Notes under the pieces: generated by a model | The model's database searches: none | Seen by the model: the letters and a program-made list of their open reading frames with translations, nothing else | Told to the model about the DNA's origin: nothing | Assembly (NCBI GenBank): GCA_903913885.1 | Contig: CAIWMX010000061.1 | Coordinates: 11,891 to 75,890 of the forward strand | DNA from: an uncultured Bacteroidales bacterium | GTDB taxonomy: Bacteria > Bacteroidota > Bacteroidia > Bacteroidales > FEN-979 | DNA: 64,000 nucleotides | Reading direction: 5' to 3' | In this document: positions 16,403 to 41,386 of the stretch, one piece after another | Position numbering within the stretch: the stretch's first letter is position 1 | Layout: every line of letters starts with the position of its first letter | Translations under genes and position numbers: made by a program

Positions 16403-16469
16403 TCATCGGCCTTGCTTTCGTCTGACTATAATTGAAAATCAACTTTTTGTAACTTTAAAAACCACAACT

Positions 16470-17513: not shown

Positions 17514-17547
17514 TAGACGGTCCTAGATCCATTAAAGTGATTCCAAA

Positions 17548-26500: not shown

Positions 26501-29500
26501 CAACTCTTTTTGCTACGGTTTATCCTTTGCCCGGGCTCGCTTCGGGAGATCACAACAGTGTGGCCATCCCGGGAACCTGGGTAAGCAGCCTGCCCGGGGT
26601 GCATGTGATCCGCGGGATCATCGACGCCGATCATGTCATTACCGAACTGGATGAAACAAACAATGATGCAACCCGGTCGTTTATCGTCGGGGAGGCCGCC
26701 AATCTCTACTTCCAGGCATTTGCACCTTCCGACTCCATGCCCCAGCTGGGCGACAATATCCTGATCCATGCCCGGATCGGCAACGGCGGAGCGCAGAACT
26801 GCAATTCGACCCTGCAGGTATTATATATCAATGACAATGCCGACACCGTGATGATCGGGCAAACGCCCTTTTCCATCCAGGGAAGGGACAGTGTATCGAT
26901 GATCCTGCCATGGACCGTTGCCGATAATTCGACCACCCTGGTCGGGAAGATCGTGAACACCATCGTCATGGAGTTCAACTATAACGACAACCTCACTACG
27001 GCCAACCTGGGAGGATACCAGGTAACCCTTACTGCCACCCCGGGTTGCGAAGGCGTTACCGCCGGATCGCTTACCGCGTATGCCTCCGGGGGCGTAACGC
27101 CTTACCTGTACAGCTGGAACAATGGCTACCTTGGTCAAACCTACAGCGGCGCCCCGGGAACCTATGTGGTTACCGTCTCCGACGGAAACGGCCAGGTGAG
27201 GACGGCTACCGGGACCATCTCGGTTTACCCCCTGCCGGTCCCGGCCATATCCGGTCCCACCTCAATCTGCGGGATCCCATCATCCGGCAATGTCTACTCG
27301 ACCGAGGCAGGCATGACCAATTATTCATGGACTATTTCACCGGGCGGCGCCATCACCTCAGGCGTCGGAACGAACGCGATTACCGTTACCTGGAGCACCA
27401 CCGGGGCGCGGTTTGTCAAAGTTTCGTACACCGACACCCATGGCTGCGCTGCTGCAGCTTCAACGGTGAAAAATGTAACCGTCTACCCGCTGCCCATCCC
27501 GGCATTAACTGGCCCTGTGTCAGCCTGCAAAGGTTCAACAGGTCATGTTTACACTACCGACAGCGGGATGACCGGGTATACATGGTATGTCTCCGCGGGA
27601 GGGACAATTACAGCAGGAGGCACATCCACGGATAATACAGTTACCGAGACCTGGAATACTTCCGGCGCGCAGAGTGTAAGCGTGAACTATACCAATGCCA
27701 ATGGGTGTACGGCCGCATCCCCCGCTAACCTGCCGGTTTCTGTCAAACCTTTGCCAATTCCAACCATAACCGGTACCACTTCCGTTTGTACCGGGAGTCC
27801 CGGGATTACCTATTCGACGGAATCGTCGATGACCGGCTATACATGGTCGGTGTCGCCGGGAGGATCAGTAACCGCCGGGGGTACCTCTTCCAGCCACACC
27901 GTAACGGTTATCTGGAACGTTCCCGGACCACAAACCGTTGGCGTCAATTATACCAATGGAAATGGATGTACGGCCAGCAGTCCGACGAGTTATCCGGTTA
28001 CGGTCAACTCACCGCCTGTACCTTCCATTACCGGCCCCACTACCGTATGTGTAAACTCTACCGGTAACGTTTATACCACCCAGACTGGAATGTCGTCCTA
28101 TACCTGGACGATTTCTACCGGGGGAACCATCACTGCCGGGGGCACCACTTCGAGCAATTCCGTCACCGTTACGTGGACCTCATCGGGTTCAAAGACCGTC
28201 AGTGTTTCTTGTACAAATACGAATGGATGTGCAGCGATTACACCAACAACATTGGGTGTAACTGTTAATCCTGCACCCCTGCCAACCCTTTCAGGACCCT
28301 CCTCCCCGATGGTCAATTCGACGGGCAATGTCTATACGACCCAGGGCGGGATGTCGGCCTATACATGGACCGTCTCGGGTGGTGGAAGCATTACCTCGGG
28401 AGGCACTTCCGGCAGCAATTCCGTAACGGTAACCTGGATAACGCCCGGTGCCAATACAGTGAGCGTTAATTACAGCAACAGCAATGGATGTTCCGGAGCC
28501 ACGGCAACCAGTTATCCTGTTACCGTCATCCCGCTTTCGGCGCCTGTCATTACCGGCCCATCCGCGGCATGTGCAGGTTCGACCGGGAATGTGTATGTTA
28601 CACAAACCGGGATGACGGCATACACCTGGAGTATTTCATCGGGAGGCACCATCACTTCCGGGGGCAGCGGCACCGACCACACCGTCACCGTGACCTGGAA
28701 TAACCCGGGTACCCAAACCGTCAGCGTCAATTATACCGACAACTATGGTTATACCCCGGCATCTCCTACCAGTTACCCGGTGACCGTTAATGCCATGCCC
28801 TCGCCCACCCTTGCCGGGCCTGCAGTTGTCTGTGCAAGTTCAACCGGAAATGTCTACACAACCCAGTCGGGGATGTCGGGTTATTCCTGGACTGTTTCTG
28901 CCGGAGGTTCGATAACAACCGGAGGAACATCAGCAAGCAACAATGTGACCATAAGCTGGATCACAGCAGGGCTAAACTCGGTAAGTGTTAATTACACCAA
29001 TGGTAATGGTTGCACAGCCGTTTCAGCGGGCAGTTATGCCGTCACCGTCAATCCGCAACCAATCCCAGTGATCTCCGGAAACTCCTCGGTCTGTATCAAT
29101 TCAACGGGGAATGTCTATACTACCCAGCCGGGCATGTCGGCCTACACCTGGACCATTTCATCCGGAGGAAGCATTACCGGAGGTGGCAGTTCATCCTCCA
29201 GCAGCGCGACGGTTACCTGGAACAATGCTGGTCAGCAAACCATAGGCGTTAATTATACCAATGGATATGGCTGCAGCGCAACCTCCCCGGGAACCCGTGC
29301 AGTGCAGGTGCAGGCAGCGCCGATCCCGGTCATTACCGGACCAACTTCCGTGTGTGTCGGGGCTACCGGGGTGGTTTACACCACCGAAGCGGGGATGATC
29401 GCGTATACCTGGATTGTATCGTCCGGGGGCACGATCACGTCGGGAGGCAGCGCCAGCAGTCATTCAGTCACCATCACCTGGAATACAACCGGGTCGCAAA

Positions 29501-31017
29501 CGGTGAGTGTGAGCTATGTCAACTCCTTTGGATGCGCTGCAGCTATGCCTACATCGCTGGCCGTATCCGTGACTACTGCGTCCAATCCCGTTATCAGCGG
29601 CTATTCATCCGTTTACGCGGGAACAGCAGGTGCGGTTTATTCTACCATTCCCGGCATGACAAGCTATTCCTGGGATGTTACAGGCGGGTCCATCACGGGC
29701 GGACAAAGCACCAACGCCATCACGGTGACCTGGGCAGCAACCCCGGGAAGCGGATCGGTAACCCTTACGGCCACAAACAATAGCTGTTCCGGCACCACCG
29801 TTTACCCGGTTACGATTCTGGCCACCACCAACGTAAAGATTTTTGGTTTTGTATCCTACAACAACAGCGCGGCAACCAGGATGAACGGGGTCGGGGTGAA
29901 GTTATACAATTCATCGAGCGTGATCGTGGGCGACACCGTCACGGCCAACAATCCCGACAATGGGCAGTCAGGCTACTACGCATTCAAAGATATCCCAAAT
30001 GACACCTATACCCTGCGCGGGAGTTACAACGGCACCTGGGGCGGCAACAACGCCACCGATGCCCTGATCGTGCAGTTGAACATTGTCGGATCGTACCCGC
30101 TGGCGGGCTTACGGGCCCTTGCGGCCGATGTGAACGGCAGCACCACCACTACTGCCCTGGATGCACTTTACATCAAATTGCGCACAGTGGGGTCCGTCAG
30201 TTCTTACCCGGCAGGCGATTGGAAGTTTACAGACACCACGGTGACCCTGACAGGTCCACCCCTGTCGGTCAACCTGCAGGCGCTGTGCACCGGCGATGTC
30301 AATAGTTCTTTTGTCCCAGTCGGGTTCAAAGAAACTACATTCCTGTCGGTTATTGAGGATGGCGCAATGACAGTCCCGGTTGGCGAACCCTTTATTTACA
30401 ATATCCACAGCAGCAGGGATGCCGATCTTGGAGCTATGACCCTCTTCCTGGGTTACGACAAAGACCGGTTTGAAGTGAGCGACGTAGCAGGAACCCTGGA
30501 TGGCATGAAGTATGTGATCGGCGATGGCCTGGTTGCCATTGCCTGGGCCGATACCAAACCCCTGAAGATGACCAGCGGCGACCTGGTATTGAGTCTCAAC
30601 ATGAAGCTGAAGGATAAGATCACTTTTCCCTCACGCGCGTTCGATATCCGGGCCGGGAGCGAATTTGCCGATATCCTGGCACGGCCGTATGAAAACTTCA
30701 ACCTGAAGATGGCGAACGTGGTAACGCCCGATGGCGCAAAGGATATCACACTTACGAATTACCCCAACCCGTTCAACAAAACCACCACCATCGTTTATGT
30801 GCTGCCTGAGGCAGGACACGCCGTGATTGAGTTGACCGATATCTATGGAAACGCCATCCGCACCCTGGCCGACTGCCAGGACAAGGCAGGATCTCATAGT
30901 ATAACGGTTGATCCGGCTGCGATGGGTTTGGCTTCGGGGGTGTACCTGTACAAGCTGGTATTTGAGAGTGCGGCGGATACCTATGTGAAGGTAAATAAGA
31001 TGGTGTTTACGAAATAA
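17548..31017 (+). CDS. Giant (4489 aa) modular T9SS-secreted cell-surface/adhesin protein
   Basis: A single uninterrupted ORF. The likely true start is M12 at 17581 (MKSIHWRNFILTTLILLLF..LAQ signal).
Modules in order:
- six 78-aa repeats;
- Fn3-like plus FISUMP-type (Fibrobacter succinogenes major paralogous, TIGR02145-like) units (DSRDGQ.YNTV.IG.QCWM.QNLNV..CP.GWH.PSD.EW);
- Cys-containing Ig-like repeats (YQW.VNG);
- DADGDGYG..DCNDND metal-binding-type motifs;
- CARDB-like modules;
- ten ~90-aa repeats;
- a dockerin-like then a cohesin-like segment;
- a T9SS CTD (NYPNPFNKTTTIVYVL..GVYLYKLVF..KVNKMVFTK). Confidence 0.93.
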   Translation: MLHTIKYCLTRMKSIHWRNFILTTLILLLFNRPTLAQNVTQVEYFTDTDPGYGLGINVPITPEPNFSDLVFPIDLTAISPGFHNLYVRSKDEYLKWSLTAVRPFYKESPNNLALPNIIQVEYFIDNDPGNGLATNAPIVPGTNLSNLVFPIDIGAIAPGFHNLYVRSKDAYLKWSLTAVRPFYKETAGMLSLPNISQVEYFIDNDPGNGLAKNVPIVPGTNLSNLIFPIDVGAVSPGFHNLYVRSKDAYQKWSLTAVKPFYTESPNNFVLPNITQVEYFIDNDPGNGLATNVSIVPGTNLSNLIFPIDVGAISPGFHNLFVRSKDAYQKWSLTAVRPLYKEIANITLPNVTKVEYFIDADPGHGLGTNVPVIPGYNLANVTFLADLTCVSHGKHHLYVRARDNNGKWSLTNDDTITSTGPFINASGSTNICPGQSVQLKAPTGPGRTYQWHKDNSPISNGTDSIFLATEIGSYYVQIVDAGVCTDTSNVLTVTLKSGSLTPTITGASPVCVGTQGIIYTTESGMTGYSWSVSSGGSIMSGSNTNNVTVNWNVAGAQTINVTYANSVGCTASPTIMNVTVNPLLPVSVTIAASINPSCSGTSVIFTATQTNGGNSPSYQWINGGINIPGATNSTYTYTPVIGDTISCQLTSSIQCPIGNPVVSTPIVMTVNASPNTPLSGANISSPIQIVWAWSSVVAATGYKWNTINNYATATDIGTATTKTETGLTCSTSYTRYVWAYNGCGNSIALILTQSTSPCFTTCGQTLTDSRDGQNYNTVQIGNQCWMAQNLNVGQQINSSGYQSNNGIIEKTCINNLESNCTIYGGMYQWDELMNYTSSSSTIPSGRQGICPIGWHLPSDAEWCQVTTYLDPTMNCSATGWLGSDAGAKMKETGILHWANPNIASNISGFTALPGGAYSRFGSTFYLFLNASYFWSATENGGNGWNYEMGNNISQIHRQGDATSMYLFSARCIMDCDMPVAPMFGIINTSPSQIIWNWNPVSGASGYKWNTTNDYASAQDLGTATTKTQTGLTCNTPYTCYVWAYNTCGHSTSLALNQSTSPCFTTCGQPLTDSRDGQSYNTVLIGSQCWMAQNLNVGAKINVPARQINNGLIEKFCFNNDEANCSIYGGLYQWDELLNYSSSGNSNPGNLRGICPFGWHVPTDFEWCQMEMFLDPTVNCSISGWSGTDIAGKLKETGTVHWQSPNTGATNSSGFTALPAGYGFGGYGFSFYDLNYTAYFWTSTVSPPVMDWSRILDYNNSQIQRHDPDWDNGFSARCIYDTCSSILYAPALGVNIPTNNQIIWNWSTVTGANGYKWNSTNDYTTAQDLGTNTSKTETGLLCNTTYNRYVWAYNLCGNSISTQLTQATSDCGIPCPGIPTLTYEGKTYHTVQIGEQCWMKENLNVGTKINGSQDQTNNNIIEKYCYNDIDSNCSIYGGLYQWDEMMNYTTSSSANPSDRQGICPTGWHIPSDVEWCQMETYLDLTVNCTYIGWNGTDIGGKLKETGTVHWLSPNIGASNSSGFTALPGGYRHYFGEFWSFAGAYLWSSTEISSTVSLNYHLSSPSTQILRDNNPKSDGFSIRCIKGCDNPETPNGGTNVPAPMQIIWNWLPVSGATGYRWSTTNDYSSSIDVGTATTKTQPGLSCNTAYTCYVWAYNGCGYSMALQMNQTTSMNPAVNVSISASGNPVCNGTTVTFTATSVSPGTSPVYQWQVNGSNEGINSSVYSYSPMNGDIVKCILTSNDPCVLVHSDTSNNITMTVNQVFPVSVSITSSANPVCSGSSATFTATPSNGGSNPAYQWKVNGSNAGSNNPSYSYIPVAGDQVSCVMTSNASCPSGNPATSNSITMALTSTTPVSVSITRSADNVCQGTAVSFTAAAVNPGTSPVYQWKVNGSGTGTNSPSFTYTPANNDVVTCSLYGDVTCPSPNPAISNSLTMSVVSAPAAPASGGNQASCSNALPGTLTAAAPSGSVVDWYTAPGGGTLLQSASNTFVTSTAGIYYAESRNTTTGCTSLARTAITLTINSAIQYFADADGDGYGNPLVSLMACSQPAGYVTNSTDCNDNDATVHALHLYYVDADGDGYGSTTTAMLCSNTAPPGYSSNNLDCNDNDPSINPGAQYFTPTGNPGFTGTIVSPLEGSSYTTFHFEADYHDLTNFLPPAGYPRLILDYEGDGNFAGPNDRTIVMTQSDPSDTTTNNGKRYFANVDGLLYGSSWQSRIIVSDGGNCTTTFGPFNAPDVLQAPNLVIFANDISFSNAHPDPSTAVMVYAAVHNESDFTAQNFVVHLVNQYDPTLVYPDVTVVSIAPHATTTVQWTITTPSIPAWCPMQVTVDYTNVIAEANELDNTAVRPFVCGNYQMPGGISCSGAVTPAVSYSSVNNTLQLSGNASYYGLAIPLPNPGVAGATVEFQITETTAIYSGYTDLNGNYTIYFPGPLPTGSYHIAGTITDYTFTGTFTAQFSIIPHTTLPNLVLQYCHSMSVQPQDPQYPGTGTLVAHVLNNGGTPAAGPIQVEFTYGTGAFFIGQSDATLGAGQSVDISVTKQLPPPATTTLTAYADPFDLVTESDESDNSATDNMCWDFQPVGFGYCGWNFWNTSYQVNQSATLSVGLNSYYLYDASQVKVKFEVSGPGITGTMNLGNGTVNNVTKNCYCPYAVVLPTQFTFSHTGTYTFTITADPDNEYVECNEANNVLVVTVYVYEPVVPNPQPNLTFYSCHPVEVQPVNPQYPGTASLVSHIINNGDAIAIGPIQVEFSYSTVGTFTGQYTGNLAPGQTVDITAIATLPPPATSLLTATIDPQHLVTESNESDNTTSDDMCWDFQPAPLCGPYGTNFWEHTYNINQSTYLSVGLSAYHLYKATPVKVRFEVSGPGITGTLYLGTALVNDVTKTCSCPYGASIPLPFTFFDPGTYTFTMTADPDHEYTECNESNNILVEQVAVVNPLPDMRILSQYLNPSLLNPSPNQAISFVVTYDNVGVTNVNDVMKMKVLIDTTLFATVYPLPGLASGDHNSVAIPGTWVSSLPGVHVIRGIIDADHVITELDETNNDATRSFIVGEAANLYFQAFAPSDSMPQLGDNILIHARIGNGGAQNCNSTLQVLYINDNADTVMIGQTPFSIQGRDSVSMILPWTVADNSTTLVGKIVNTIVMEFNYNDNLTTANLGGYQVTLTATPGCEGVTAGSLTAYASGGVTPYLYSWNNGYLGQTYSGAPGTYVVTVSDGNGQVRTATGTISVYPLPVPAISGPTSICGIPSSGNVYSTEAGMTNYSWTISPGGAITSGVGTNAITVTWSTTGARFVKVSYTDTHGCAAAASTVKNVTVYPLPIPALTGPVSACKGSTGHVYTTDSGMTGYTWYVSAGGTITAGGTSTDNTVTETWNTSGAQSVSVNYTNANGCTAASPANLPVSVKPLPIPTITGTTSVCTGSPGITYSTESSMTGYTWSVSPGGSVTAGGTSSSHTVTVIWNVPGPQTVGVNYTNGNGCTASSPTSYPVTVNSPPVPSITGPTTVCVNSTGNVYTTQTGMSSYTWTISTGGTITAGGTTSSNSVTVTWTSSGSKTVSVSCTNTNGCAAITPTTLGVTVNPAPLPTLSGPSSPMVNSTGNVYTTQGGMSAYTWTVSGGGSITSGGTSGSNSVTVTWITPGANTVSVNYSNSNGCSGATATSYPVTVIPLSAPVITGPSAACAGSTGNVYVTQTGMTAYTWSISSGGTITSGGSGTDHTVTVTWNNPGTQTVSVNYTDNYGYTPASPTSYPVTVNAMPSPTLAGPAVVCASSTGNVYTTQSGMSGYSWTVSAGGSITTGGTSASNNVTISWITAGLNSVSVNYTNGNGCTAVSAGSYAVTVNPQPIPVISGNSSVCINSTGNVYTTQPGMSAYTWTISSGGSITGGGSSSSSSATVTWNNAGQQTIGVNYTNGYGCSATSPGTRAVQVQAAPIPVITGPTSVCVGATGVVYTTEAGMIAYTWIVSSGGTITSGGSASSHSVTITWNTTGSQTVSVSYVNSFGCAAAMPTSLAVSVTTASNPVISGYSSVYAGTAGAVYSTIPGMTSYSWDVTGGSITGGQSTNAITVTWAATPGSGSVTLTATNNSCSGTTVYPVTILATTNVKIFGFVSYNNSAATRMNGVGVKLYNSSSVIVGDTVTANNPDNGQSGYYAFKDIPNDTYTLRGSYNGTWGGNNATDALIVQLNIVGSYPLAGLRALAADVNGSTTTTALDALYIKLRTVGSVSSYPAGDWKFTDTTVTLTGPPLSVNLQALCTGDVNSSFVPVGFKETTFLSVIEDGAMTVPVGEPFIYNIHSSRDADLGAMTLFLGYDKDRFEVSDVAGTLDGMKYVIGDGLVAIAWADTKPLKMTSGDLVLSLNMKLKDKITFPSRAFDIRAGSEFADILARPYENFNLKMANVVTPDGAKDITLTNYPNPFNKTTTIVYVLPEAGHAVIELTDIYGNAIRTLADCQDKAGSHSITVDPAAMGLASGVYLYKLVFESAADTYVKVNKMVFTK
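17662..18783 (+). repeat. Six tandem 78-aa (234-nt) intragenic repeats
   Basis: QVEYF(I/T)D.DPG.GL..N.PI.PG.NLSNL.FPID..A..PGFHNLYVRSKDAY.KWSLTAVRPFYKE recurs at residues 41, 119, 197, 275 and 353. Copies 2-5 are also near-identical at the DNA level. Confidence 0.9.
19555..22560 (+). repeat. Intragenic array of four Fn3-like modules, the first three each followed by a FISUMP-type domain
   Basis: The Fn3-like blocks (I.WNW..V.GA.GYKWN.TNDY..A.DLGT.T.KT.TGL.CNT.Y..YVWAYN.CG.S) are about 300 aa apart. The FISUMP blocks start near 19820, 20730 and 21660. Confidence 0.85.
27220..29820 (+). repeat. Ten tandem ~90-aa (~270-nt) intragenic repeats
   Basis: The unit is P.I(S/T)GP.SVC..STGNVYTT..GMS.YTWT(V/I)S.GG.IT.GGTS.SN.VTVTW...G..TVSVNYTN.NGC.A.SPTSYPVTVNP. 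One further isolated copy lies at about 19050-19290. Confidence 0.9.
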
Positions 31018-31496: not shown

Positions 31497-33077
31497 ATGG
31501 CCAAAGAACAAAAACCTGAAGCTGAAGAGCCCCTCGAAAAAAAACTATGGAAAACCGCTGACAAACTCCGTAAAAATATGGATGCGGCCGAATACAAGCA
31601 TGTGGTGATGGGCCTTATCTTCCTGAAATACATTTCCGATGCCTTTGAAGAGATGTTTCTGAAGCTAGTAGCTCAGAAAAGTGAAGGCGCCGACCCGGAA
31701 GATAAAAACGAATACACCGCTGAGAAGATATTTTATGTACCTCCCTCATCCCGGTGGAATTGGATCCAGGGCCGGGCGACCCTGCCTACCATCGGCAAGG
31801 ATGTGGACGATGCCATGGATGCCATTGAAAAAGACAATCCCTCCCTGCGCGGGGTGCTGCCGAAGGTCTTTGCCCAGGAAAAACTCGACAAGGCCAGCCT
31901 GGGTGGGCTCATCAACCTGGTAAGTTCAGCCGCCCTGGGCACAAAGGAGGCTCAAAGCAAGGATGTGCTGGGCCGGGTGTATGAATATTTCCTGGGCGAA
32001 TTCGCCATGGCCGAAGGGAAAAAGGGCGGGCAATTCTACACCCCCTCCTGCGTGGTAAAACTCCTTGTCGAAATGCTCGAACCCTACGAAGGCCGGGTAT
32101 TCGACCCCTGCTGCGGCAGCGGCGGCATGTTCGTGCAAAGCGAAAAATTCATCCTTCACCACCAGGACCATTACCGCGCCCGGGGTGGATCCCGGTCTGC
32201 AAATACCATGAACCCTACTGACTTCATCTCCATCTACGGCCAGGAGAGCAACCAGACCACCTGGCGGCTCGCCAAGATGAACCTCGCTATCCGCGGCATC
32301 GACAGCAGCAACGTGAAGTGGAACAACGAAGGCAGTTTTCTCAACGATGCCCACAAGGACCTGAAGGCCGACTATGTGATTGCCAATCCCCCGTTCAACG
32401 ACAGCGACTGGAGCGGCGACCTGCTCCGCGACGATGCCCGGTGGAGCATCCTGGGGAAAAAGTTGCCCCCTCCCCCCGGCAATGCAAATTATGCCTGGAT
32501 CCAGCACTTCCTATACCACCTGGCTCCCACCGGGATGGCTGGGTTCGTATTAAGTAAAGGTTCGCTCACCACCAACACCACCGGCGAAGGCGATATCCGC
32601 AGGGCCCTGGTCGAAAACGACCTGGTCGACTGCATCGTGAACCTCCCCACCAAGCTTTTTCTCAATACCCAGATCCCGGCCTGCCTCTGGTTCCTGCGCC
32701 GGAACAAAACCCTGCGCAAAGGAGAAATCCTCTTTATCGACGCCCGGAACCACGGTTACCTGATCAACCGCAAGAACCGAAGCCTTTCTGATGATGACAT
32801 TTCCATGATCGCAGGCGTTTATCATGCGTGGCGCACTGGTGAGGCTGAATACAACGATGTGGCCGGGTTCAGCAAGAGTGCTTCTCTTGACGAGGTAACT
32901 GCCTTGAATTTTGCATTGACCCCGGGCAGGTATATCGGGTTGGCTGATGATGAGGATGATTTTAATTTCCCGGAACGGTTTGCGGCATTGAAGGCTGAAC
33001 TGGAGAAACAGATAGCCGAAGAAGATGCATTGAACCGGCGCATTGCGGAAAACCTGTCAAAAATAAACCTCAGTTGA
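31497..33077 (+). CDS. hsdM: Type I restriction-modification system, N6-adenine DNA methyltransferase subunit M
   Basis: 526 aa with an HsdM_N-type N-terminus ([32 protein letters not shown]), SAM motif [11 protein letters not shown] and catalytic motif IANPPFN. Confidence 0.95.
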
Positions 33078-33198
33078 CATGTTCCAATTCTGCACCGAAG
33101 AAAGGATTTTTAAGATCACAGATTGTGACCATAAACCAGGACCAAAACAGAATGGACTCGGAAACAGTTAAATTATTGAATCAAATAAAGGTGAAAGA

Positions 33199-34335
33199 AT
33201 GAGGGAGTGGAAAGAAGTTAAGTGGGGTGAAATTGCTGTCCTTGAATACGGCAAAGCCTTAAAAGACTATCAGAATAAAAATGGGAAGTACCCTGTTTTC
33301 GGGACAAACGGACAAATTGGGACAACAGATTCTTTTTTATGTTCTTCTTCTGGAATAATTATTGGAAGAAAAGGAGCGTACAGGGGCGTACATTATTCTG
33401 ATATGCCTTTTTTTGTGATTGATACAGCATTTTATTTAAACCCTGCAATTAATGAGTTAAACATCAAGTTTGCATACTATCACCTGCTAAATGTCGATAT
33501 TAATGCGATGGATAGTGGCTCTGCAATACCTTCGACAAGCCGGGAAGAGTTTTATGACTTAAATATTTTGCTTCCGGAACTTGACGAACAAATTGCCATA
33601 TCTGAAGTTCTAAGCAGTTTAGATGACAAAATCGACCTCCTCCACCGCCAAAATAAAACTTTAGAGCAATTGGCCGGAACGCTTTTCAGGCAGTGGTTTG
33701 AGGATGAGGCACAAATAGATTGGAAAGAAATGAAGTTAAGTGATTTCATTTCCGTGAAACATGGCTATGCATTTAAAGGTGCTCACATCTCAAATGAGCC
33801 TACCAATCTTATCTTAGTAACCCCAGGGAATTTTAAAATTGGTGGTGGATTCAAGTTTGAGAAATTCAAATATTATACGGATAATAAATTTCCACAAGAT
33901 TATATCTTTAGAACTGGCGATTTAATCGTAACAATGACGGATTTAAGCGGGGATGGAGACACCCTTGGTTATCCAGCATTAATTCCTGAAAATTGTTTGA
34001 ATGAAAACTATTTACATAATCAACGTGTTGGAAAAGTTGAGTTTAACAAAGATCTTGGAAAGTTTTTTATTTATTATTTAATGAAAACAAAGAATTATCA
34101 ATGGTTTATCCTTGGAGGTGCATCGGGTACTTCAATAAGACATACTTCACCAACAACAATCTGCTCATACTCTTTTTTTATGCCACCTAAGCAAAAACTA
34201 ATTGAGTTTGAATTTTTTGCTACAGAATTAGAGAAAAAAAGGACAAAGAACCATACTCAAATTCGCACCCTAACCAAACTCCGGGATACCTTATTGCCAA
34301 AATTGATGAGTGGAGAGGTTAGAATTCAATGTTAA
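33199..34335 (+). CDS. hsdS: Type I restriction-modification system, specificity subunit S
   Basis: 378 aa with two variable target-recognition halves. They are separated by the conserved helix LPELDEQIAISEVLSSLDDKIDLLHRQNKTLEQLAGTLFRQWF and closed by a second one, IRTLTKLRDTLLPKLMSGEVRI. Confidence 0.92.
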   Translation: MREWKEVKWGEIAVLEYGKALKDYQNKNGKYPVFGTNGQIGTTDSFLCSSSGIIIGRKGAYRGVHYSDMPFFVIDTAFYLNPAINELNIKFAYYHLLNVDINAMDSGSAIPSTSREEFYDLNILLPELDEQIAISEVLSSLDDKIDLLHRQNKTLEQLAGTLFRQWFEDEAQIDWKEMKLSDFISVKHGYAFKGAHISNEPTNLILVTPGNFKIGGGFKFEKFKYYTDNKFPQDYIFRTGDLIVTMTDLSGDGDTLGYPALIPENCLNENYLHNQRVGKVEFNKDLGKFFIYYLMKTKNYQWFILGGASGTSIRHTSPTTICSYSFFMPPKQKLIEFEFFATELEKKRTKNHTQIRTLTKLRDTLLPKLMSGEVRIQC

Positions 34336-34339
34336 TAAA

Positions 34340-35944
34340 ATGGAAGAGACTGATTCATTAATGCTCGATACCTGGATCATCCGGGAATACAAATCAAAGC
34401 AAAGAAGTTGGTATCCAGTTGTTACTGATTCCGAACTTATTTTTAACTGGGAGGAGTTTCCGGCATTTAACAACTCAACCTTTGAAGAAATCTATTTTAT
34501 TACCAAAAAAAACAATTCTTATAGAAGATCTGATTGGATACATTATATTTCAAGTGCAATCTATAACAGTTATAAAATTAGGAAGAACCATATTGTTATT
34601 ATAGCCAACTTCAGCAATCGAATAACAAAAATAGGCGTAGTCGTTGCTAAGACTATAACGAATGACCATGATCGTTGCATCCGGTTTTCAGTCGAATGGA
34701 AAAAATTTCAACATGAAATGATTGTTGAAAACCGCGAGTTCCCAAAATGGCACCTGGTAAAATCCCTTGAACAGAATCGATCATATTCTTTATTATCCGG
34801 CGCTGAATTTGTTAAAAGCCCAGGGGATTCGAGGACACCCTGGTTTGATCTTATGTTTTTTCCGGAAGATCAAAAAGTTATTGTTTCGCGTAAAGCGATT
34901 AAACATAAGTTCCTTGAAGATCCTCTCTTTTTTCATACAATAAAAGATGATACCGGTGGCACTGTAAAGTTGTTTTTCGGCACAAACAGGAATAGAACGG
35001 GTTCGGAGAATCCAAATGATTATTTTGGAAATAAACCTGATGGATTGTCATTTGGGACTTGTATGGTAAACATTCCAAAAGGTCATATGCAAGGAGAGGT
35101 AGAACGTCCCTTCAGTTTCTGGGTTTTTAAATTGCATGAAAATGAAGAAGACCACGTTGTTCTAAAAAGTATCACCGAGGTTGAATCAAAGTCCTTTTTT
35201 GATGAACTGAACGAAGAGATTGCTTTGAAGTCTGAAAAAGCAGCCTTAATATTTCTTCATGGATACAACACGAGCTTTGCTGAAGCATCACGAAGGGCTG
35301 CACAAATAACATGGGATGTTCCATTTAATGGAATATCAGGATTTTATAGCTGGCCATCCCAGGGAAACCCACTGTTATACCGAAAAGATATAAAGCTTGC
35401 CAATGCCTCAGTGCCATGTTTTGAAGAATTTATTACGAGGATGATGGATAAATCAAATGTTGAGAAACTGCATATAATTGCTCATAGTATGGGCAGCCGT
35501 TTGCTTTTGTTTACAATAAAAAATATATTCCGGAAAACGCCGATCTTCAGCAAACTTTCAACTATTAATCAACTTGTTTTAGCCGCACCGGATTTTGATC
35601 AGATTGATTTTCAAAACAATATCCTGCCCTATTTTAGCAGGCTAGGGTCTCGAAGAACTTTATATGCATCAGACAAAGATTTAGCACTAAAGGTATCCGA
35701 ATATCTAAGAGGTGGACTTCCACGACTTGGAGAGGCCGGAGATTCGATATTTGTGGCTGAAGGCCTCGATACCATTGATGCATCTAATGTAGAATCAAAC
35801 TGGAAAAATCACAGCTATATTTTTGATGAGAAAGAGTTGCTTACCGACCTTTTTCTTCTTTTGAAAAACGGGGATGGGCCTTTGGATCGAAGATTAAGGC
35901 CTCGAAAAAAATTTGATTTACCGTACTGGTTATTTCCAGCATGA
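34340..35944 (+). CDS. DUF900-like alpha/beta-hydrolase with an unassigned ~210-aa N-terminal domain, embedded in the type I R-M operon
   Basis: The ORF is open from 34310, but the ATG at 34340 lies 4 nt after the hsdS stop, so it is the likely start. The C-terminal half has the DUF900-type entry motif KLFFGTNRNR..FGTCMVNIPKGH. It also has the nucleophile elbow IIAHSMGS (Ser codon 35486-35488), acid motif LAAPDFD and a late His (KNHSYIF). Confidence 0.85.
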   Translation: MEETDSLMLDTWIIREYKSKQRSWYPVVTDSELIFNWEEFPAFNNSTFEEIYFITKKNNSYRRSDWIHYISSAIYNSYKIRKNHIVIIANFSNRITKIGVVVAKTITNDHDRCIRFSVEWKKFQHEMIVENREFPKWHLVKSLEQNRSYSLLSGAEFVKSPGDSRTPWFDLMFFPEDQKVIVSRKAIKHKFLEDPLFFHTIKDDTGGTVKLFFGTNRNRTGSENPNDYFGNKPDGLSFGTCMVNIPKGHMQGEVERPFSFWVFKLHENEEDHVVLKSITEVESKSFFDELNEEIALKSEKAALIFLHGYNTSFAEASRRAAQITWDVPFNGISGFYSWPSQGNPLLYRKDIKLANASVPCFEEFITRMMDKSNVEKLHIIAHSMGSRLLLFTIKNIFRKTPIFSKLSTINQLVLAAPDFDQIDFQNNILPYFSRLGSRRTLYASDKDLALKVSEYLRGGLPRLGEAGDSIFVAEGLDTIDASNVESNWKNHSYIFDEKELLTDLFLLLKNGDGPLDRRLRPRKKFDLPYWLFPA

Positions 35945-36104
35945 AACTCGTCATTTTTGATAAAATGGAATCCTTCGCCGATGAGCAACCTAAATATTTA
36001 TGTATGGTTTTGTTCATCCTCGCAAATTTTTACTTAATCCGGAAAAGGAAAGTCAATACATGTTATTAATAATCTGTAACTTGCTGCTTAATTAACAAAG
36101 GAAC

Positions 36105-37568
36105 ATGATTAAAAACTGGATACACCGGGCTTTTGAACTCTTAACCCACAGCTTGGAGCCGGTACCACAGGAGATCAATGAGCTTGATTGGAAAGAGAGT
36201 CTTTCACCTGATAATGCGAAACTGACCCGCCATCTTTCAGCATTTGCTAATCAGCCTGGTGGTGGCTTTATGGTATTTGGCATCGAAAATAAAACTGCAA
36301 AACTTATTGGGATTTCACATAAAGATACAGATCTTATTGTTCAGAAGCTAAGCAGTCTATGCCGGGATGCTCTCAATCCGGTTATTGTATTGGACCATGC
36401 TGTTGAATATTATCAGGATGTTCCACTGCTTTTTATTTATATAAAAGAAAGTTCTGTAAAACCAGTACACTTAACATCGGAGTCAATTGAAGTTGCTTAT
36501 ATCCGCAGCGGGGGAACAACCCGTCTGGCCTCCAGGCATGAAGTGGGGGCCCTGATGCTGAACAGTAAAACACCTCAATTCGAGGAACTGCATGCTTCCA
36601 AACTCAAACAATTTCCTGAAATAATGGATTTGCTTGATTTCAGAAGTATATTCAGGTTGCTTGATAAGCCGGTACCACAGACAAATTCAGAGATTCTCCG
36701 GTGGCTGACAGATGAAAAAATGATTGTTGCCATAGATGGCGCGGGGTTTTACATAACCAATTTTGGCGCTTTATCATGTGCATACAATTTGAAGGAATTT
36801 GATGGTCTTGCAAGGAAGAGCATCCGTTTGATAAAATATAAAGGCATTACCAAAATTGAGACCGAGAAAGAATACCCGGGTTCCAGGGGGTATGCAATCG
36901 GATTTGATGGTTTAATCACCTTTATCAAAGCATTGCTTCCTGGAAGTGAGATCGTGAAAAATGCCTTAAGGGCAGAGACAACAATATACCCCGAAATTGC
37001 ACTACGGGAGTTGATCGCAAATGCTCTTATCCACCAGGACTTCTCCATTCGTGGTTCCGGACCTATGATTGAAATTTTTGACAATAGAATTGTTATTTCA
37101 AATCCGGGTAAACTTTTACCATCAAAAAAAATAGACCGGCTGATAAGAACAACTCCTGAATCAAGAAATGAAGTTTTAGCGGCAGCTTTCAGAAGGTATA
37201 ATATCTGTGAGGAAAGAGGTTCAGGCCTTGAGAAGGCCGTTGCTGCTATTGAATTCTACGGATTACCCCCATTGAAATTTGAAGAGCTGGAAAATTCATT
37301 CAGAGTCACCATGTTTAGCCCGAAAACATTTGCAAACTTAACCCCGGCAGAGCGTGTAGAAGCATGTTATCAGCATTCAATAATCAAATATTATTCAACC
37401 GGAGGGATGTCCAATGCCAGTTTAAGGGAAAGATTTAAGATGCACGAAAAGCAAAGACCTCAGGTTTCCCTGGTAATCAAAGAAGCTTTGTCGCTTGGGA
37501 AGATTAAACCCAGAGACCCAAATAATGTATCAACAAAATTTGCTGAATACATCCCGTTTTGGGGTTAG
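36105..37568 (+). CDS. Schlafen/AlbA_2-domain plus HATPase_c_4-like protein with C-terminal wHTH-like tail, embedded in the type I R-M operon
   Basis: 487 aa. The N-terminus ELDWKESL..LTRHLSAFANQPGGGFMVFGIE is the AlbA_2 (divergent AAA / Schlafen-like) signature. The centre RELIANALIHQDF..GPMIEIFDNRIVISNPG is the HATPase_c_4 signature. Confidence 0.8.
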   Translation: MIKNWIHRAFELLTHSLEPVPQEINELDWKESLSPDNAKLTRHLSAFANQPGGGFMVFGIENKTAKLIGISHKDTDLIVQKLSSLCRDALNPVIVLDHAVEYYQDVPLLFIYIKESSVKPVHLTSESIEVAYIRSGGTTRLASRHEVGALMLNSKTPQFEELHASKLKQFPEIMDLLDFRSIFRLLDKPVPQTNSEILRWLTDEKMIVAIDGAGFYITNFGALSCAYNLKEFDGLARKSIRLIKYKGITKIETEKEYPGSRGYAIGFDGLITFIKALLPGSEIVKNALRAETTIYPEIALRELIANALIHQDFSIRGSGPMIEIFDNRIVISNPGKLLPSKKIDRLIRTTPESRNEVLAAAFRRYNICEERGSGLEKAVAAIEFYGLPPLKFEELENSFRVTMFSPKTFANLTPAERVEACYQHSIIKYYSTGGMSNASLRERFKMHEKQRPQVSLVIKEALSLGKIKPRDPNNVSTKFAEYIPFWG

Positions 37569-37675
37569 TCTTTGCTTAACTTAAAATGCTAACTATGATT
37601 TATGTTGCTGATATCCAATCGTTTTTTGCTTAATTCAAAACTGGAAAGTTATATAAACCTTGTTTTTTTTTTTTA

Positions 37676-40600
37676 ATGAAACCCATCACCGAGGATAAAA
37701 TAGAATCCTTCACCATCGAACAACTTCAGCAATCGGGTTGGGAGTATGTTCATGGTGTTTCAATTGCCCCAGGTGGTGAAAATCAGGAACGTGAAACCTA
37801 CGAACAAGTTATTCTTGTTGGCCGCCTGAAAGCTGCCATTACCCGTTTGAACCCTAATATACCGGAAAACTACAGGGAACAGGCCGTACAAAAGGTGTTG
37901 CGTATTTGGTCACCCGACCTTCTGCACAACAACGAAACATTTCATCAACTCCTGGTGGAAAAAGTACGCATCCCATACCAGCAGGATGGCTATGAACGCA
38001 GCCATGAAGTGGCGCTGGTTGATTTCGGCAATATCGGGAACAACCAGTTTTTGGCGGTCAACCAGTACACCATCGTTGAAAACAACCAGAACAAACGGCC
38101 GGATGTGCTGCTGTTCGTGAATGGCATCCCCCTGGTGGTGATCGAACTCAAGAATGCGGCCGACGAACAGGCTACCCTGCGCAAGGCCTTCGACCAGGTG
38201 CAAACCTATAAGGCCACCATTCCAGGGTTGTTCACCTTCAATTCCATTTGCGTGATTTCCGACGGGATGGAATGCAAGGCCGGAAGCGTTACCGCCGGGT
38301 TCAGCCGCTATATGGCATGGAAAACCGCCGATGGCCGGAAGGAGGCTTCCAGGTTCAAGCCACAGTTGGAAACCCTGCTCACCGGGATGCTGAACCCCGC
38401 CACCCTGCTCGACCTGGTGCGCAATTTCATTGTCTTCGAGAAAACGAAAAAAGAGGAACCGAAAACCGGCATCACCCAGGTTGTAACAGAAAAGAAGCTG
38501 GCGGCCTACCACCAGTATTATGCCGTGAACAAGGCGGTGCAGTCAGCCTTCCAGGCCTCAGGCATCCATGGCGACAAGCGGGGCGGTGTGGTGTGGCATA
38601 CGCAGGGATCGGGAAAAAGCCTGAGCATGGTCTTCTTTGCCGGCAAACTGATCGTTTCGCCCGAGATGCAAAATCCCACCATCGTGGTGCTCACCGACCG
38701 CAACGACCTCGACGACCAGTTGTTCGGCACCTTCGCCGCCGCCAGACAATTGCTGCGGCAGGAACCCATGCAAGCCGAAAGCCGGGATCAGCTGAAAGAG
38801 CTGCTGAAGGTGGCCAGTGGCGGCATCGTCTTCACCACCATCCAGAAATTCCTTCCCCAGGATGGAGCAACAACCTACGACACCCTCTCCGAACGGAGGA
38901 ACATCGTGGTGATTGCCGACGAGGCACACCGCACCCAATATGGATTTGAAGCAAAGTTGCTGGATGAAAAGGATGCCGTTACCAAGGAGGTGATCGGCAA
39001 GCGCATCGCCTACGGTTTTGCCAAGTACATGCGCGATGCCCTGCCCAATGCCACTTATATAGGCTTCACCGGCACCCCCATCGAGGGAACCGACGTGAAT
39101 ACCCCGGCCGTGTTCGGACAATACGTGGATGTGTATGACATCGCCCAGGCCGTGGCCGACGGTGCCACCGTTCGCATCTATTACGAGAGTCGGCTGGCAA
39201 AGGTAAACCTCGATGAAGAGGGCAAACGGCTGATCCGGGAGTTTGACGACGAGCTCGAACAGGATGAAGAGGTAACTGAAAAACAAAAGGCCAAGGTCAA
39301 ATGGACCAAACTGGAGGCCATTGTCGGCAATACCGACCGGGTGAAGAACCTGGCCAGGGATATTGTCACCCATTTTGAAGTACGGCAGTCCGTTTTTGAC
39401 GGCAAGGCCCTGGTGGTGGCCATGAGCCGCAGGATTGCCGTTGACCTGTACAATGAGATCATCAGAATCAGGCCGGGCTGGCATGATGACGATCCATCGA
39501 AAGGCATCATCAAGGTGGTGATGACCTCCAGCAGCGCCGACGGCCCCGTGATCTCGAAACATCACACCACGAAACAGCAGCGGAAGAATTTGTCGGACCG
39601 GATGAAAGACCCAGCGGATCCGTTGAAGATCGTGATCGTGCGCGACATGTGGCTCACCGGCTTTGACGTTCCCTGCCTGCATACCATGTACATTGACAAG
39701 CCCATGCGCGGCCACACGCTGATGCAGGCCATCGCCCGTGTGAACCGCGTGTTCAGGGACAAACCGGGCGGGTTGGTGGTCGATTACCTGGGCATTGCTT
39801 CCGACCTGAAGAAGGCCCTGTCGTTCTATTCCGATTCCGGCGGAAAGGGCGATCCCGCCTTAAGCCAGGAGCAGGCCGTTGCCGCCATGGTTGAAAAGAT
39901 GGAGGTGCTGCAGCAGATGTTTGCCGAAGACAGCTCCACCCGGAAAGATATCCTGGTTGAAGAACCGGAGGCCTATTACAAAAATAGTTTGAAATTCAAT
40001 TATCGTCGTTTCTTTAGTGTCGACGCCAGGGAGAAGCTCTCCATCATCCTGCAGGCTGAAGAGCATATCCTCGGGCTGAATGAAGGAAAAGAACGGTTTA
40101 CGCGCGAAGTCTCCCTGCTGAGCCAGGCCTTTGCCCTTTCCGTCCCGCAGGAAAAAGCCATGGAGATCAAAGACGAGGTAGCCTTTTTCCAGGCTGTAAG
40201 ATCGCGGCTGGTGAAATTTGAAGGCACCGGCAATGGCAAATCAGATATTGAAATTGAAACCGCCATCAAGCAGATCGTAGATGAAGCCCTGAGCTCCGAC
40301 ACCGTCATCGACATCTTTGATGCAGCAGGAATCAAAAAGCCCGATATCTCCATCCTTTCCGACGAGTTCCTGCTCGATGTGAAGGGGATGAAACACCAGA
40401 ACCTGGCACTTGAACTGCTGAAGAAGATCCTGAACGACGAAATCAAAACCAGGGCCAAAACCAACCTGGTTAAAAGCAGGGCCCTGTTGGAGATGCTGGA
40501 ATCCTCCATCAAACGGTACCAGAACAACCTCTTGTCAACCGCCGAGATCATCCAGGAGCTGATCAACATTGCAAAGGAGATCAAAGCAGCCGACGCCGAG

Positions 40601-40903
40601 GGCGAACGGCTGGGTTTAACCACCGATGAAGTGGCTTTTTACAATGCCCTTGAAACCAATGATAGCGCGGTGGCTGTTTTGGGAGACATTACACTACGGG
40701 AGATTGCAAGGGAGATTGCAGAGAAAGTGCAGGCGAATGCTACTATTGACTGGACAATCCGGGAAAGTGCCCGGGCGAGGTTGATGGTGATTGTGAAGCG
40801 GACGTTGACGAAATACGGGTATCCTCCGGATAAGCAGCAGAAAGCAATTGATACCGTGTTGAAGCAGGCGGAGTTGATGGCGGAATATTATATAACCGTT
40901 TAA
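37676..40903 (+). CDS. hsdR: Type I restriction-modification system, endonuclease/helicase subunit R
   Basis: 1075 aa with Walker A HTQGSGKS, DEAH box VIADEAHRTQ, helicase C motifs (MWLTGFDVP, QAIARVNR) and an N-terminal nuclease-type region (PDVLLFVNGIPLVVIELK). Confidence 0.95.
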   Translation: MKPITEDKIESFTIEQLQQSGWEYVHGVSIAPGGENQERETYEQVILVGRLKAAITRLNPNIPENYREQAVQKVLRIWSPDLLHNNETFHQLLVEKVRIPYQQDGYERSHEVALVDFGNIGNNQFLAVNQYTIVENNQNKRPDVLLFVNGIPLVVIELKNAADEQATLRKAFDQVQTYKATIPGLFTFNSICVISDGMECKAGSVTAGFSRYMAWKTADGRKEASRFKPQLETLLTGMLNPATLLDLVRNFIVFEKTKKEEPKTGITQVVTEKKLAAYHQYYAVNKAVQSAFQASGIHGDKRGGVVWHTQGSGKSLSMVFFAGKLIVSPEMQNPTIVVLTDRNDLDDQLFGTFAAARQLLRQEPMQAESRDQLKELLKVASGGIVFTTIQKFLPQDGATTYDTLSERRNIVVIADEAHRTQYGFEAKLLDEKDAVTKEVIGKRIAYGFAKYMRDALPNATYIGFTGTPIEGTDVNTPAVFGQYVDVYDIAQAVADGATVRIYYESRLAKVNLDEEGKRLIREFDDELEQDEEVTEKQKAKVKWTKLEAIVGNTDRVKNLARDIVTHFEVRQSVFDGKALVVAMSRRIAVDLYNEIIRIRPGWHDDDPSKGIIKVVMTSSSADGPVISKHHTTKQQRKNLSDRMKDPADPLKIVIVRDMWLTGFDVPCLHTMYIDKPMRGHTLMQAIARVNRVFRDKPGGLVVDYLGIASDLKKALSFYSDSGGKGDPALSQEQAVAAMVEKMEVLQQMFAEDSSTRKDILVEEPEAYYKNSLKFNYRRFFSVDAREKLSIILQAEEHILGLNEGKERFTREVSLLSQAFALSVPQEKAMEIKDEVAFFQAVRSRLVKFEGTGNGKSDIEIETAIKQIVDEALSSDTVIDIFDAAGIKKPDISILSDEFLLDVKGMKHQNLALELLKKILNDEIKTRAKTNLVKSRALLEMLESSIKRYQNNLLSTAEIIQELINIAKEIKAADAEGERLGLTTDEVAFYNALETNDSAVAVLGDITLREIAREIAEKVQANATIDWTIRESARARLMVIVKRTLTKYGYPPDKQQKAIDTVLKQAELMAEYYITV

Positions 40904-40992
40904 TTATCTTTAACTTAATATGAGTTATGTGTTTACCTTTTATTCAAAACTTACATCATCTGCTTTTACCTCAACACAAGAATAAAAATATA

Positions 40993-41013
40993 TTTTAACC
41001 CTAGGGGTTAAAA
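40993..41013. promoter_or_regulatory. Inverted repeat upstream of the higB-like gene (candidate operator, or hsdR terminator stem)
   Basis: ttttaaccc-tag-gggttaaaa (9-bp arms, 3-nt spacer) ends 24 nt before the ATG at 41038. Confidence 0.4.
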
Positions 41014-41037
41014 CAAACAAATAATGTATATCTTTGT

Positions 41038-41373
41038 ATGGAAATTAAATACAAGACAAGTAAATTAGCAAAAAGTGTCGAATCACCGCGAGATATCCAA
41101 AAAAACTACGGGACTCGCGCCAAATTGGTAAATCAACGAAAAAGTGAATTAGAAGCGGCAGAAACATTAGATACAATGCGATTTATCCCTGCCGCTAATT
41201 GTCATGAATTGTCAGGTAATCATACTGGTGAACTTGCAGTTGATATTTCACAAAATCACAGAATAATTTTTGAACCAAATCACAATCCTATTCCGATAAA
41301 ACCAGATAGTGGACTTGATTGGACCCGGGTAACTAAAATTATTATCAATGCCATAGGTGTCGACTACCATTAG
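41038..41373 (+). CDS. higB: HigB-like (RelE/ParE superfamily, 'killer protein') toxin
   Basis: 111 aa. NCHELSGNHTGELAVDISQNHRIIFEP and the C-terminal GVDYH match the HigB-like toxin family pattern (..L.G.r.G..si.i...wRi.F....dYH). Confidence 0.8.
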   Translation: MEIKYKTSKLAKSVESPRDIQKNYGTRAKLVNQRKSELEAAETLDTMRFIPAANCHELSGNHTGELAVDISQNHRIIFEPNHNPIPIKPDSGLDWTRVTKIIINAIGVDYH

Positions 41374-41386
41374 ATAACACCAAGCC

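Follow-up and report, generated by a model that had tools for sequence, protein, structure and literature searches.

A putative reader-hydrolase protein encoded within a type I restriction-modification operon of an uncultured Bacteroidales bacterium

What does a lipase-like enzyme do inside a restriction-modification (RM) operon? The question is raised by a 64,000-nucleotide stretch of an uncultured Bacteroidales genome (assembly GCA_903913885.1, contig CAIWMX010000061.1, positions 11,891 to 75,890 of the forward strand; hereafter, the window). Here, a gene for a DUF900-type alpha/beta hydrolase, the target of this analysis, is the third of five co-oriented genes, being preceded by hsdM and hsdS and followed by a Schlafen-like gene encoding 487 aa and by hsdR. 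We considered the following alternatives: the gene could serve the type I enzyme, it could act in defence on its own, or it could be an ordinary enzyme gene that happens to lie there. On balance we favour the second alternative, in the form of a single protein in which a reader of modified bases or DNA would gate a lipase-type abortive-infection effector.

Architecture of the target protein

The open reading frame (ORF) spans 34310..35944 on the forward strand, the GTG at 34310 overlapping the end of hsdS. The likely start of the gene is the ATG at 34340, 4 nt past the hsdS stop codon (TAA, 34333-34335), which yields 534 aa; in the database gene call for an identical protein (P0001, 527 aa) the start is the ATG at 34361. 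Residues are numbered here from the ATG at 34340, hence Ser383 corresponds to Ser393 in the initial annotation, which counted from 34310. The protein begins with MEETDSLMLDTW. Its features are as follows.

34340..35944, + strand: target coding sequence, 534 aa and the stop codon; ATG 34361 is an alternative start (527 aa)
34361..34789, + strand: N-terminal domain, residues 8-150, a putative divergent branch of the PUA-like readers of PF28530 type; pI 9.4
34796..34942, + strand: linker, residues 153-201; predicted local distance difference test score (pLDDT) <50, gappy and poorly conserved alignment columns
34943..35941, + strand: DUF900-type alpha/beta hydrolase domain, residues 202-534, assigned by Pfam PF05990, AlphaFold2, Foldseek and conservation
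35258..35263, + strand: H307-G308, predicted 'HG' oxyanion-hole motif after the LIFLHG strand 301-306; conserved in 71-72/72 relatives, role deduced from the standard fold
35480..35494, + strand: nucleophile elbow AHSMG (381-385); Ser383 codon AGT at 35486-35488, 72/72
35591..35593, + strand: D418 in LAAPDFD, candidate catalytic acid; 72/72, after strand 409-415
35678..35680, + strand: D447 in YASDKD, alternative candidate acid; 72/72, after strand 438-443
35810..35812, + strand: H491 in NHSYIF, predicted catalytic histidine; 71/72, after strand 477-480

The AlphaFold2 model, for which 33 full-length homologs served as input, consists of three parts: a confident N-terminal domain (pLDDT about 90 in the full model; 87, with a predicted template modelling score of 0.82, when modelled alone), a low-confidence linker and a confident hydrolase domain, in which residues 202-534 form a single alpha/beta domain with pLDDT mostly >90. 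Judging from this model, the protein almost certainly consists of a separate module at the N-terminus and an intact serine hydrolase, joined by a flexible linker. The initial annotation had described a continuous N-terminal domain of about 210 aa; that extent has to be reduced, as the folded part covers residues 8-150 only and is followed by the linker. Neither a signal peptide nor a transmembrane segment was found in the protein (the maximal 19-residue Kyte-Doolittle mean is 1.49, and it falls inside a beta-strand of the N-terminal domain), and thus the protein is predicted to be cytoplasmic, in agreement with the initial annotation. The possibility, raised there, of a mere extension of a known secreted lipase family is likewise at odds with the lack of a signal peptide and of a membrane anchor.

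A database search yielded 2140 homologs of the target protein. Residues 285-500 match Pfam DUF900 (PF05990) with 126.8 bits (E 1.2e-36; cut-off 20.5). Conservation was counted in an alignment of 72 relatives from genomes of many phyla, with 33-58% identity. A381, H382, S383, M384, G385, D418, D447 and G308 are invariant (72/72), and H307 and H491 are each kept in 71/72 relatives. Since the catalytic and oxyanion residues are conserved to this degree, the hydrolase is, as far as the alignment tells, under selection as an active serine hydrolase. The motifs quoted in the initial annotation are all present (FFGTNRNR at residues 211-218, IPKGH at 245-249, AHSMG at 381-385, LAAPDFD at 414-420, NHSYIF at 490-495), and the serine codon is found exactly at the position given. 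The segment FFGTNRNR...IPKGH..G, taken there as a DUF900 signature, is indeed conserved across this clade, but it lies outside the Pfam match, which starts at residue 285; it belongs to a clade-specific leading beta-hairpin (FFGTNRNR...IPKGH..GE.ERP; R217 in 70/72 relatives, P246 in 72/72, H249 and E255 in 69/72 each).

In the model, strand 376-382, Ser383 and helix 384-397 form a nucleophile-elbow arrangement, and the AHSMG pentapeptide is the same as in the elbow of Bacillus LipA, the top match among Protein Data Bank (PDB) sequences (phmmer). A Foldseek search with the full model returned generic lipases (LipA), cutinases and PETases at E about 1e-4, none of them an informative close structure. 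There are two candidates for the catalytic acid. The triad proposed initially (the elbow Ser, the Asp of LAAPDFD and the His of NHSYIF) stands as far as the conservation of Ser383, D418 and H491 is concerned, but D447 is equally invariant, which makes the acid ambiguous. The strand preceding D418 is the one directly after the nucleophile strand; D447 sits after the strand next beyond it, that is, in the canonical position of the acid. With D447 the Ser-Asp-His spacing is 64/44, compared to 68/44 in the triad of cinquedea. Thus placed in the model, D447 may be the catalytic acid instead of the LAAPDFD Asp.

Cinquedea is an archaeal phospholipase A, with the activity shown in vitro, and its homologs mostly carry DUF900 (10.64898/2026.06.10.730825). 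Compared by description, it resembles the target in being an alpha/beta hydrolase with an X-His-Ser-X-Gly elbow and similar triad spacing; in contrast to the target, it is a secreted single-domain protein with a signal peptide, used against other cells.

The window protein and its homologs are 19% identical in the N-terminal domain and 51% in the C-terminal one (all-pair means, 27% and 51%, respectively), and in this alignment the N-terminal domain is seen to evolve much faster than the hydrolase domain. Its conserved residues are W12, W24, W37, G99 and W120. Searches of the N-terminal domain against Pfam (a copy without PF28530), NCBIfam and PADLOC gave only PTSIIA_gutA and SLOG, at E about 0.03-0.1, with no family recurring among the 32 members scanned, and its profiles had no match among PDB sequences.

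A profile built from 32 N-terminal domains, when run against 1.84 billion representative proteins, retrieved only 73 clusters, so that the domain is rare; in nearly all of them it forms the N-terminus of a DUF900 protein some 530 aa long. The domain was also observed in other company: with AAA_5, the McrB-type GTPase (P0161; hmmsearch 2.4e-8), upstream of AAA_5 (P0170), upstream of AAA_5 with an adjacent EVE domain (P0171), with an HNH nuclease (P0159; hmmsearch 8.6e-9) and with an nSTAND3 NTPase (P0168). An hhalign comparison of the DUF900-linked N-terminal domains with the McrB/HNH/STAND-linked ones gave 99.2% (E 1.6e-19, 143 columns), and tblastn of plasmids with one partner-fused relative produced matches within McrB-like proteins, one of them followed by an annotated mcrC. 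The database relatives found with the McrB/HNH/STAND-linked profile all carry PF28530, several of them together with HNH, and one PF28530 relative is named 'predicted Mrr-cat superfamily restriction endonuclease' by JGI. Conversely, every PF28530-annotated protein matches that profile, the DUF900 proteins P0018, P0053, P0079 and P0031 being among them. Few PF28530 proteins (3 and 10) were recovered by word-indexed homolog searches, and for the protein of the window itself no PF28530 match is precomputed.

Given the hhalign result and the PF28530 relatives, the N-terminal domain of the window protein would be a divergent branch of a domain found in the reader position of modification-dependent restriction enzymes, and its homology to that domain in McrB-type, HNH and Mrr-cat restriction proteins is, on these profile comparisons, very probable. 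The initial statement that the N-terminal region matches nothing recognisable is therefore superseded, as relatives carry PF28530. One relative, P0031 (686 aa), carries the reader domain twice in tandem, as a canonical copy and a divergent one.

A Foldseek search with the model of the N-terminal domain gave DrmA (E 0.026, prob 0.96, TMq 0.41) and ASCH 3iuw (prob 0.80) as the top weak matches, followed by Lon-N, the cereblon Lon-like domain, the ATP sulfurylase N-domain and, among the BFVD viral models, DUF3850. All of these except DrmA we take to be PUA-like barrels. A weak match to Pfam EVE (E 0.04-0.08) was also seen in two of eight canonical members of the family. The modelled fold thus weakly resembles PUA-like barrels. 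The initial annotation had guessed at a beta-rich barrel binding a ligand or nucleic acid and had suggested a structural model of this region; the folded domain 8-150, its weak PUA-like matches and the homology to restriction proteins all fit that guess.

The reader-like domain is one of several N-terminal modules in the DUF900 clade, where PF28530-type domains, Mrr_N, TPR and several unknown N-termini are found in front of the hydrolase. Mrr_N is the N-terminal domain of Mrr restriction proteins, and in P0085 (486 aa), from the same hydrolase clade, it takes the place of the PF28530-type domain. Judged by eye, P0024, P0028, P0084 and P0088 have an apparent small P-loop N-terminus (MKAI.LKGRG.SGKST), and P0042, an apparent multi-pass membrane one. 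A hydrolase clade with so many N-terminal modules is a useful scaffold for comparing sensors that gate one effector.

Genomic contexts of the relatives

We compared 13 independent loci, the window included, each encoding a protein with this N-terminal domain. Seven of them lie beside recognised or candidate defence genes; three more adjoin genes for conjugation, for a transposase or for a member of an antitoxin family. Type I RM genes are in or next to three loci. In a Legionellaceae metagenome-assembled genome (L006) the homolog is inside a type I RM operon, and in L001 it abuts hsdM-Fic-GmrSD-hsdS. Elsewhere the adjoining genes encode SIR2 and HerA-like proteins; an Eco57I-type methylase with AAA_15 and HEPN; Dcm/Vsr/HATPase_c_3/HNH/HipA; large helicases; or Prok-E2 and ThiF (one locus each). 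One homolog is beside a relaxase and a coupling protein (T4CP), another beside a transposase. As 7/13 contexts are linked to defence and three more to mobile or antitoxin-family genes, the typical homolog is not the housekeeping gene outside defence contexts that the initial annotation had named as a refutation. A defence role of the target gene is, in our estimate, probable.

The homologs are mostly solitary and patchily distributed across phyla. The only recurring partners in the 13 loci are the type I RM genes (n = 3) and a HigB/HTH-M78 gene pair (n = 2: the window and L006). The immediate neighbours of all DUF900 loci taken together are enriched in Peptidase_C14 caspases (n = 9), Trypsin_2 (n = 7), ankyrin (n = 6) and Hpt (n = 5) proteins, and TPR proteins are also found next to distant DUF900 clades without this N-terminal domain. 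A conserved operon was considered and rejected, since no partner recurs and the caspase, trypsin and ankyrin neighbours belong to those distant clades. The 487-aa Schlafen-like protein was likewise rejected as a partner, being absent from all homolog loci.

Some of the distant DUF900 genes form arrays of their own. In Flavobacteriaceae (L011, L013, L015-L017, L020, L021, L023) DUF900 proteins without the PF28530-type domain are encoded in conserved multi-gene arrays; in Winogradskyella and relatives the genes on either side of DUF900 encode about 510-570 aa and about 474 + 660 aa. Such arrays are also found in the Duganella group (L022, L027, L033, L036, L050), where the flanking genes are small (about 121 aa and about 142 aa). 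The arrays give the impression of conflict systems in their own right that employ the same effector.

The loci also bear on whether the target is a part of the type I enzyme that surrounds it. All four operon neighbours of the target have unambiguous Pfam matches:

31497..33077, + strand: hsdM, N6-adenine methyltransferase; Pfam and strong PADLOC matches; GC content at third codon positions (GC3) 0.67
33199..34335, + strand: hsdS; Pfam and strong PADLOC matches; GC3 0.32
36105..37568, + strand: 487-aa gene with Schlafen AlbA_2 and HATPase_c_4, the second embedded gene; GC3 0.38
37676..40903, + strand: hsdR; Pfam and strong PADLOC matches; GC3 0.68

The target could be an accessory subunit, bound to HsdS/HsdM or to the 487-aa protein and active only in the complex. 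The short gap to hsdS would agree with this, as would the absence of terminator-like sites from the gaps between the five co-oriented genes (scans for sigma-70 promoters and terminators being uninformative for a Bacteroidota locus) and the fact that the Legionellaceae genome, whose HsdM is 80% identical, has a homolog in the same slot. That homolog, however, is only about 35% identical and has no Schlafen-like neighbour, its operon carrying the HigB/HTH-M78 pair between the DUF900 gene and hsdR; 10/13 contexts have no type I RM genes nearby; and the composition of the cargo is unlike that of hsdM and hsdR. We consider a subunit very unlikely. The initial annotation had envisaged an interaction with HsdS/HsdM or with the 487-aa protein; nothing in these loci, where homologs mostly stand alone, shows the target to depend on them.

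Proposed mechanism and known systems

We suggest that the target is a self-contained cytoplasmic sensor-effector, carried as cargo within a type I RM operon. Its N-terminal domain would bind a modified nucleobase, either in the invading DNA or as a free nucleotide released in the course of infection. Binding would be relayed via the linker of about 50 residues, or by oligomerisation, so that the DUF900 hydrolase is released or assembled; the hydrolase (Ser383, His491, Asp447 or Asp418, and the HG motif) would then attack the membrane of its own cell, most likely as a phospholipase or esterase, and the infection would be aborted. Such a module could cover phages that escape the type I enzyme, e.g. 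through modified DNA or anti-restriction proteins. The initial annotation had also proposed a sensor module controlling a lipase-type effector; the separate module, the linker and the intact hydrolase support this in part, but the control and the lipid target remain inferred, as do the ligand, the activation mechanism and the abortive outcome. That the hydrolase acts on a lipid we propose only tentatively.

The closest parallel is provided by a January 2026 preprint (10.64898/2026.01.15.699771) on a PUA-like family fused to Calcineurin-CE, HEPN, TIR, DrHyd, HNH and McrB-AAA, whose architectures include 'PUA EVE McrB-AAA' and which is embedded in HsdM-TRD-PUA-...-HsdR operons. One member senses Dam-derived m6-dAMP, which is freed when phages bring about the degradation of the chromosome, and in response switches on an abortive effector that depletes nucleotides; the nucleobase pocket of the ECOR28 protein is formed by F9, H23, W35, W38, Y100 and Y101 (same preprint). 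The PF28530-type family shares the HNH, McrB-AAA and EVE partners and the embedding in RM operons with that family. There are also conserved aromatic residues, W12, W24 and W37 in the window protein and W5, W20, W33 and Y102 in P0159, with a spacing that would be compatible with this pocket. Judging from architectures, embedding and aromatic spacing, it is quite probable that the two families are the same.

The target resembles the PUA-Cal-HAD system in that an N-terminal reader of about 150-170 aa, a linker and a C-terminal catalytic effector are joined in one polypeptide, and, on the target side presumably, in abortive infection set off by a modified base. The differences are that the effector is Calcineurin-CE there and a DUF900 alpha/beta hydrolase here, that PUA-Cal-HAD has a gene for a HAD phosphatase whereas the target operon has neither a Metallophos nor a HAD gene, and that the Tyr pair of the pocket (Y100, Y101) is absent from the window protein. 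No fusion to an alpha/beta hydrolase, lipase or DUF900 is listed in the preprint and its supplements, and we found no description of the target's fusion in the literature searched on DUF900/COG4782 and on PUA-like hydrolase fusions.

The same plan, a reader joined to an effector, is seen in type IV, or modification-dependent, restriction enzymes (McrB/AAA_5 with McrC, PUA/EVE/SRA-HNH, Mrr_N with Mrr_cat). These cleave DNA, whereas the effector of the target is neither a nuclease nor a DNA translocase (a Pfam scan of the protein found no nuclease and no AAA_5 domain), its predicted substrate is a lipid or an ester, and the outcome would be suicide or dormancy of the cell. Lipase-type effectors are known from other defence systems, such as the patatin phospholipase CapV of CBASS and the lipase/hydrolase variants of Lamassu LmuA. 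Like the proposed effector, they are cytoplasmic lipolytic enzymes that stay inactive until an infection signal and then destroy the membrane; they differ from the target in the fold family and in the sensor, and the target operon contains no cyclase or SMC-like partner gene. As for the position among hsd genes, type I RM operons are well known to harbour embedded defence genes, with TgvAB of V. cholerae VPI-2, PrrC and 'guilt-by-embedding' as examples (Payne et al. 2024; the target family is not named in the main text). TgvAB and PrrC share with the target this position and the presumed role of complementing restriction against evading phages, but they are GmrSD-like nucleases and an anticodon nuclease, respectively, not a serine hydrolase. 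The target would thus seem, as its sequence reads, to follow a reader logic and a type of embedding that are both known, and to differ by an effector not described before.

A more specific version of the proposal would couple the alarm to the methylome. The PUA-like domain could read N6-methyladenine nucleotides or DNA fragments marked by HsdM, whose gene lies two genes upstream; they would be freed upon degradation of the host chromosome by a phage or upon loss of the restriction complex to it, and the cytoplasmic phospholipase would then kill the cell. We regard this version as improbable. If true, it would make type I RM a two-layer system, in which the mark is both a self label and a damage signal, and would add a lipid output to a reader family so far known only with effectors directed at nucleic acids or nucleotides.

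The same reader homology admits a different use of the hydrolase. Guided by the reader, it could strip acyl- or aminoacyl-like adducts from phage bases and so re-expose the DNA to the type I enzyme, in which case the cooperation with HsdR would be direct and not parallel. Alpha/beta hydrolases do include amidases and peptidases besides lipases, the gene sits inside hsdM-hsdS-...-hsdR, and the relatives of the N-terminal domain deliver effectors directed at DNA (McrB, HNH, Mrr-cat). Most homologs, however, are not beside a restriction enzyme, and cinquedea, the nearest characterised DUF900-type enzyme, is a phospholipase. Members of the clade have caspases and trypsin-like proteases encoded nearby, and their N-termini can be TPR, transmembrane or secreted ones, which fits a generic toxic effector, and no precedent for such de-modification was found in the literature searched. 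This explanation seems to us the most improbable of all those considered.

Several observations weigh against the reader-gated effector itself. The N-terminal domain of the window protein has neither the Tyr-x-Phe/Tyr motif of the canonical subfamily nor the G-D of KxGD, and as these are missing, its ligand binding may differ or be lost; its model has no PDB match with E <1e-3; and the identification with the family of the preprint was drawn from shared architectures and aromatic spacing. The substrate of an alpha/beta hydrolase is not predictable from the fold, and the wider DUF900 clade also includes proteins with signal peptides, TPR domains and transmembrane segments. None of the PADLOC-DB v2 models matches the protein (0 families at E up to 0.01), a search for RNA-seq runs covering the gene found none, and among the 13 loci two have no defence or mobile-element genes and one has only a gene of the SocA/Panacea (antitoxin) family nearby.

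The PADLOC result and the last three loci would suit an ordinary lipase or esterase, housekeeping or degradative, that resides in a variable region and has the N-terminal domain as a structural or oligomerisation appendage; the homologs, moreover, bear only generic names in JGI and NCBI ('esterase/lipase superfamily enzyme', 'alpha/beta hydrolase'). The protein, though, is cytoplasmic and has no export signal, no metabolic operon partners are conserved, seven of the 13 contexts are beside recognised or candidate defence genes, and three more are linked to conjugation, a transposase or an antitoxin family. The homology of the N-terminal domain to reader modules of restriction enzymes, its fast divergence as opposed to the conserved hydrolase, and the patchy spread over phyla also speak against an ordinary enzyme, which we therefore regard as unlikely, though less so than the subunit or the de-modifying enzyme.

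The reader-gated effector, if confirmed, would be a defence module of one gene, in which the reader of modified bases or DNA is joined to a serine hydrolase aimed at the membrane, and would extend to a lipid target the 'reader + effector' logic of type IV systems and PUA-like alarms. DUF900, a widespread family of unknown function, would gain a defined role in intracellular conflict, and the locus would be a clean case of cargo exchange in type I RM operons, hsdM and hsdR being the conserved flanks of an exchanged hsdS and its defence cargo.

Composition of the locus and the surrounding window

The RM locus (31497-42493) is a sharp compositional mosaic. GC3 is 0.67 in hsdM and 0.68 in hsdR, compared to 0.32 in hsdS, 0.33 in the target, 0.38 in the Schlafen-like gene and 0.26/0.33 in the higB/HTH-M78 pair. 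The stretch is present in freshwater and lake metagenomes. In four lake metagenomes the cargo (33633-38122) forms one clean contig at genome depth, whereas for hsdM and hsdR the depth is higher, there are variant contigs, and the assembly graph is broken near 31712, 32104 and 38122. This difference in depth and contig pattern implies that the hsdM and hsdR flanks are common to co-occurring genomes and that the cargo is private, and suggests the exchange of an hsdS-plus-cargo cassette between conserved flanks.

Two local deviations were seen in the same data. In one metagenome (X3), depth rises to 21, compared to about 8, over a part of the N-terminal domain region (34609-35009), and a contig diverges at 34733; another variant of the gene may be present here, its breakpoint lying within the reader domain. 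At 37663, within the 107 nt that separate the Schlafen-like gene from hsdR, one base of the window is missing in all four metagenome runs, probably a difference in homopolymer length.

The Schlafen-like gene itself (AlbA_2, E 1e-15; HATPase_c_4, E 4e-25) weakly matches pAgo-associated and SIR2-PNTD models of PADLOC, and seems to be an embedded candidate in its own right. Just after hsdR, at 41038-42493 (+), a HigB-like gene (111 aa) precedes one for a 368-aa HTH_3 + Peptidase_M78 protein; the latter protein matches PADLOC PD-Lambda-2_B (E 2e-29) and HigA (2.5e-11). Next come tRNA-Val(CAC) at 42581-42658 (-) and a PDC-S01 gene (AAA_14 + DUF4143; 42790-43923, +; PADLOC E 7e-160). Since metagenome contigs end or diverge at 42581-42658, the junction at the tRNA-Val is variable and could be the edge of an island.

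At the other side, a tyrosine recombinase gene (Phage_integrase + Phage_int_SAM_5; 13656-14870, +) opens a stretch of low GC content (0.37-0.43; 14000-22000), with two unassigned genes of about 350 aa each behind it. The whole region of 13.6-45 kb may be one integrated element. Giant ORFs flank the defence cluster: 17548-31017 (+; 4489 aa) has PKD_6 and Fib_succ_major in its first 1000 residues, and for 45654-56705 (+; 3683 aa) a Pfam scan of the first 1000 residues gave no match at E up to 1e-5. Other products of the window are a PAS-rich hybrid histidine kinase, a Por_Secre_tail protein and a hybrid histidine kinase/response regulator that has an AraC-type HTH, the latter two pointing to a Bacteroidota origin.

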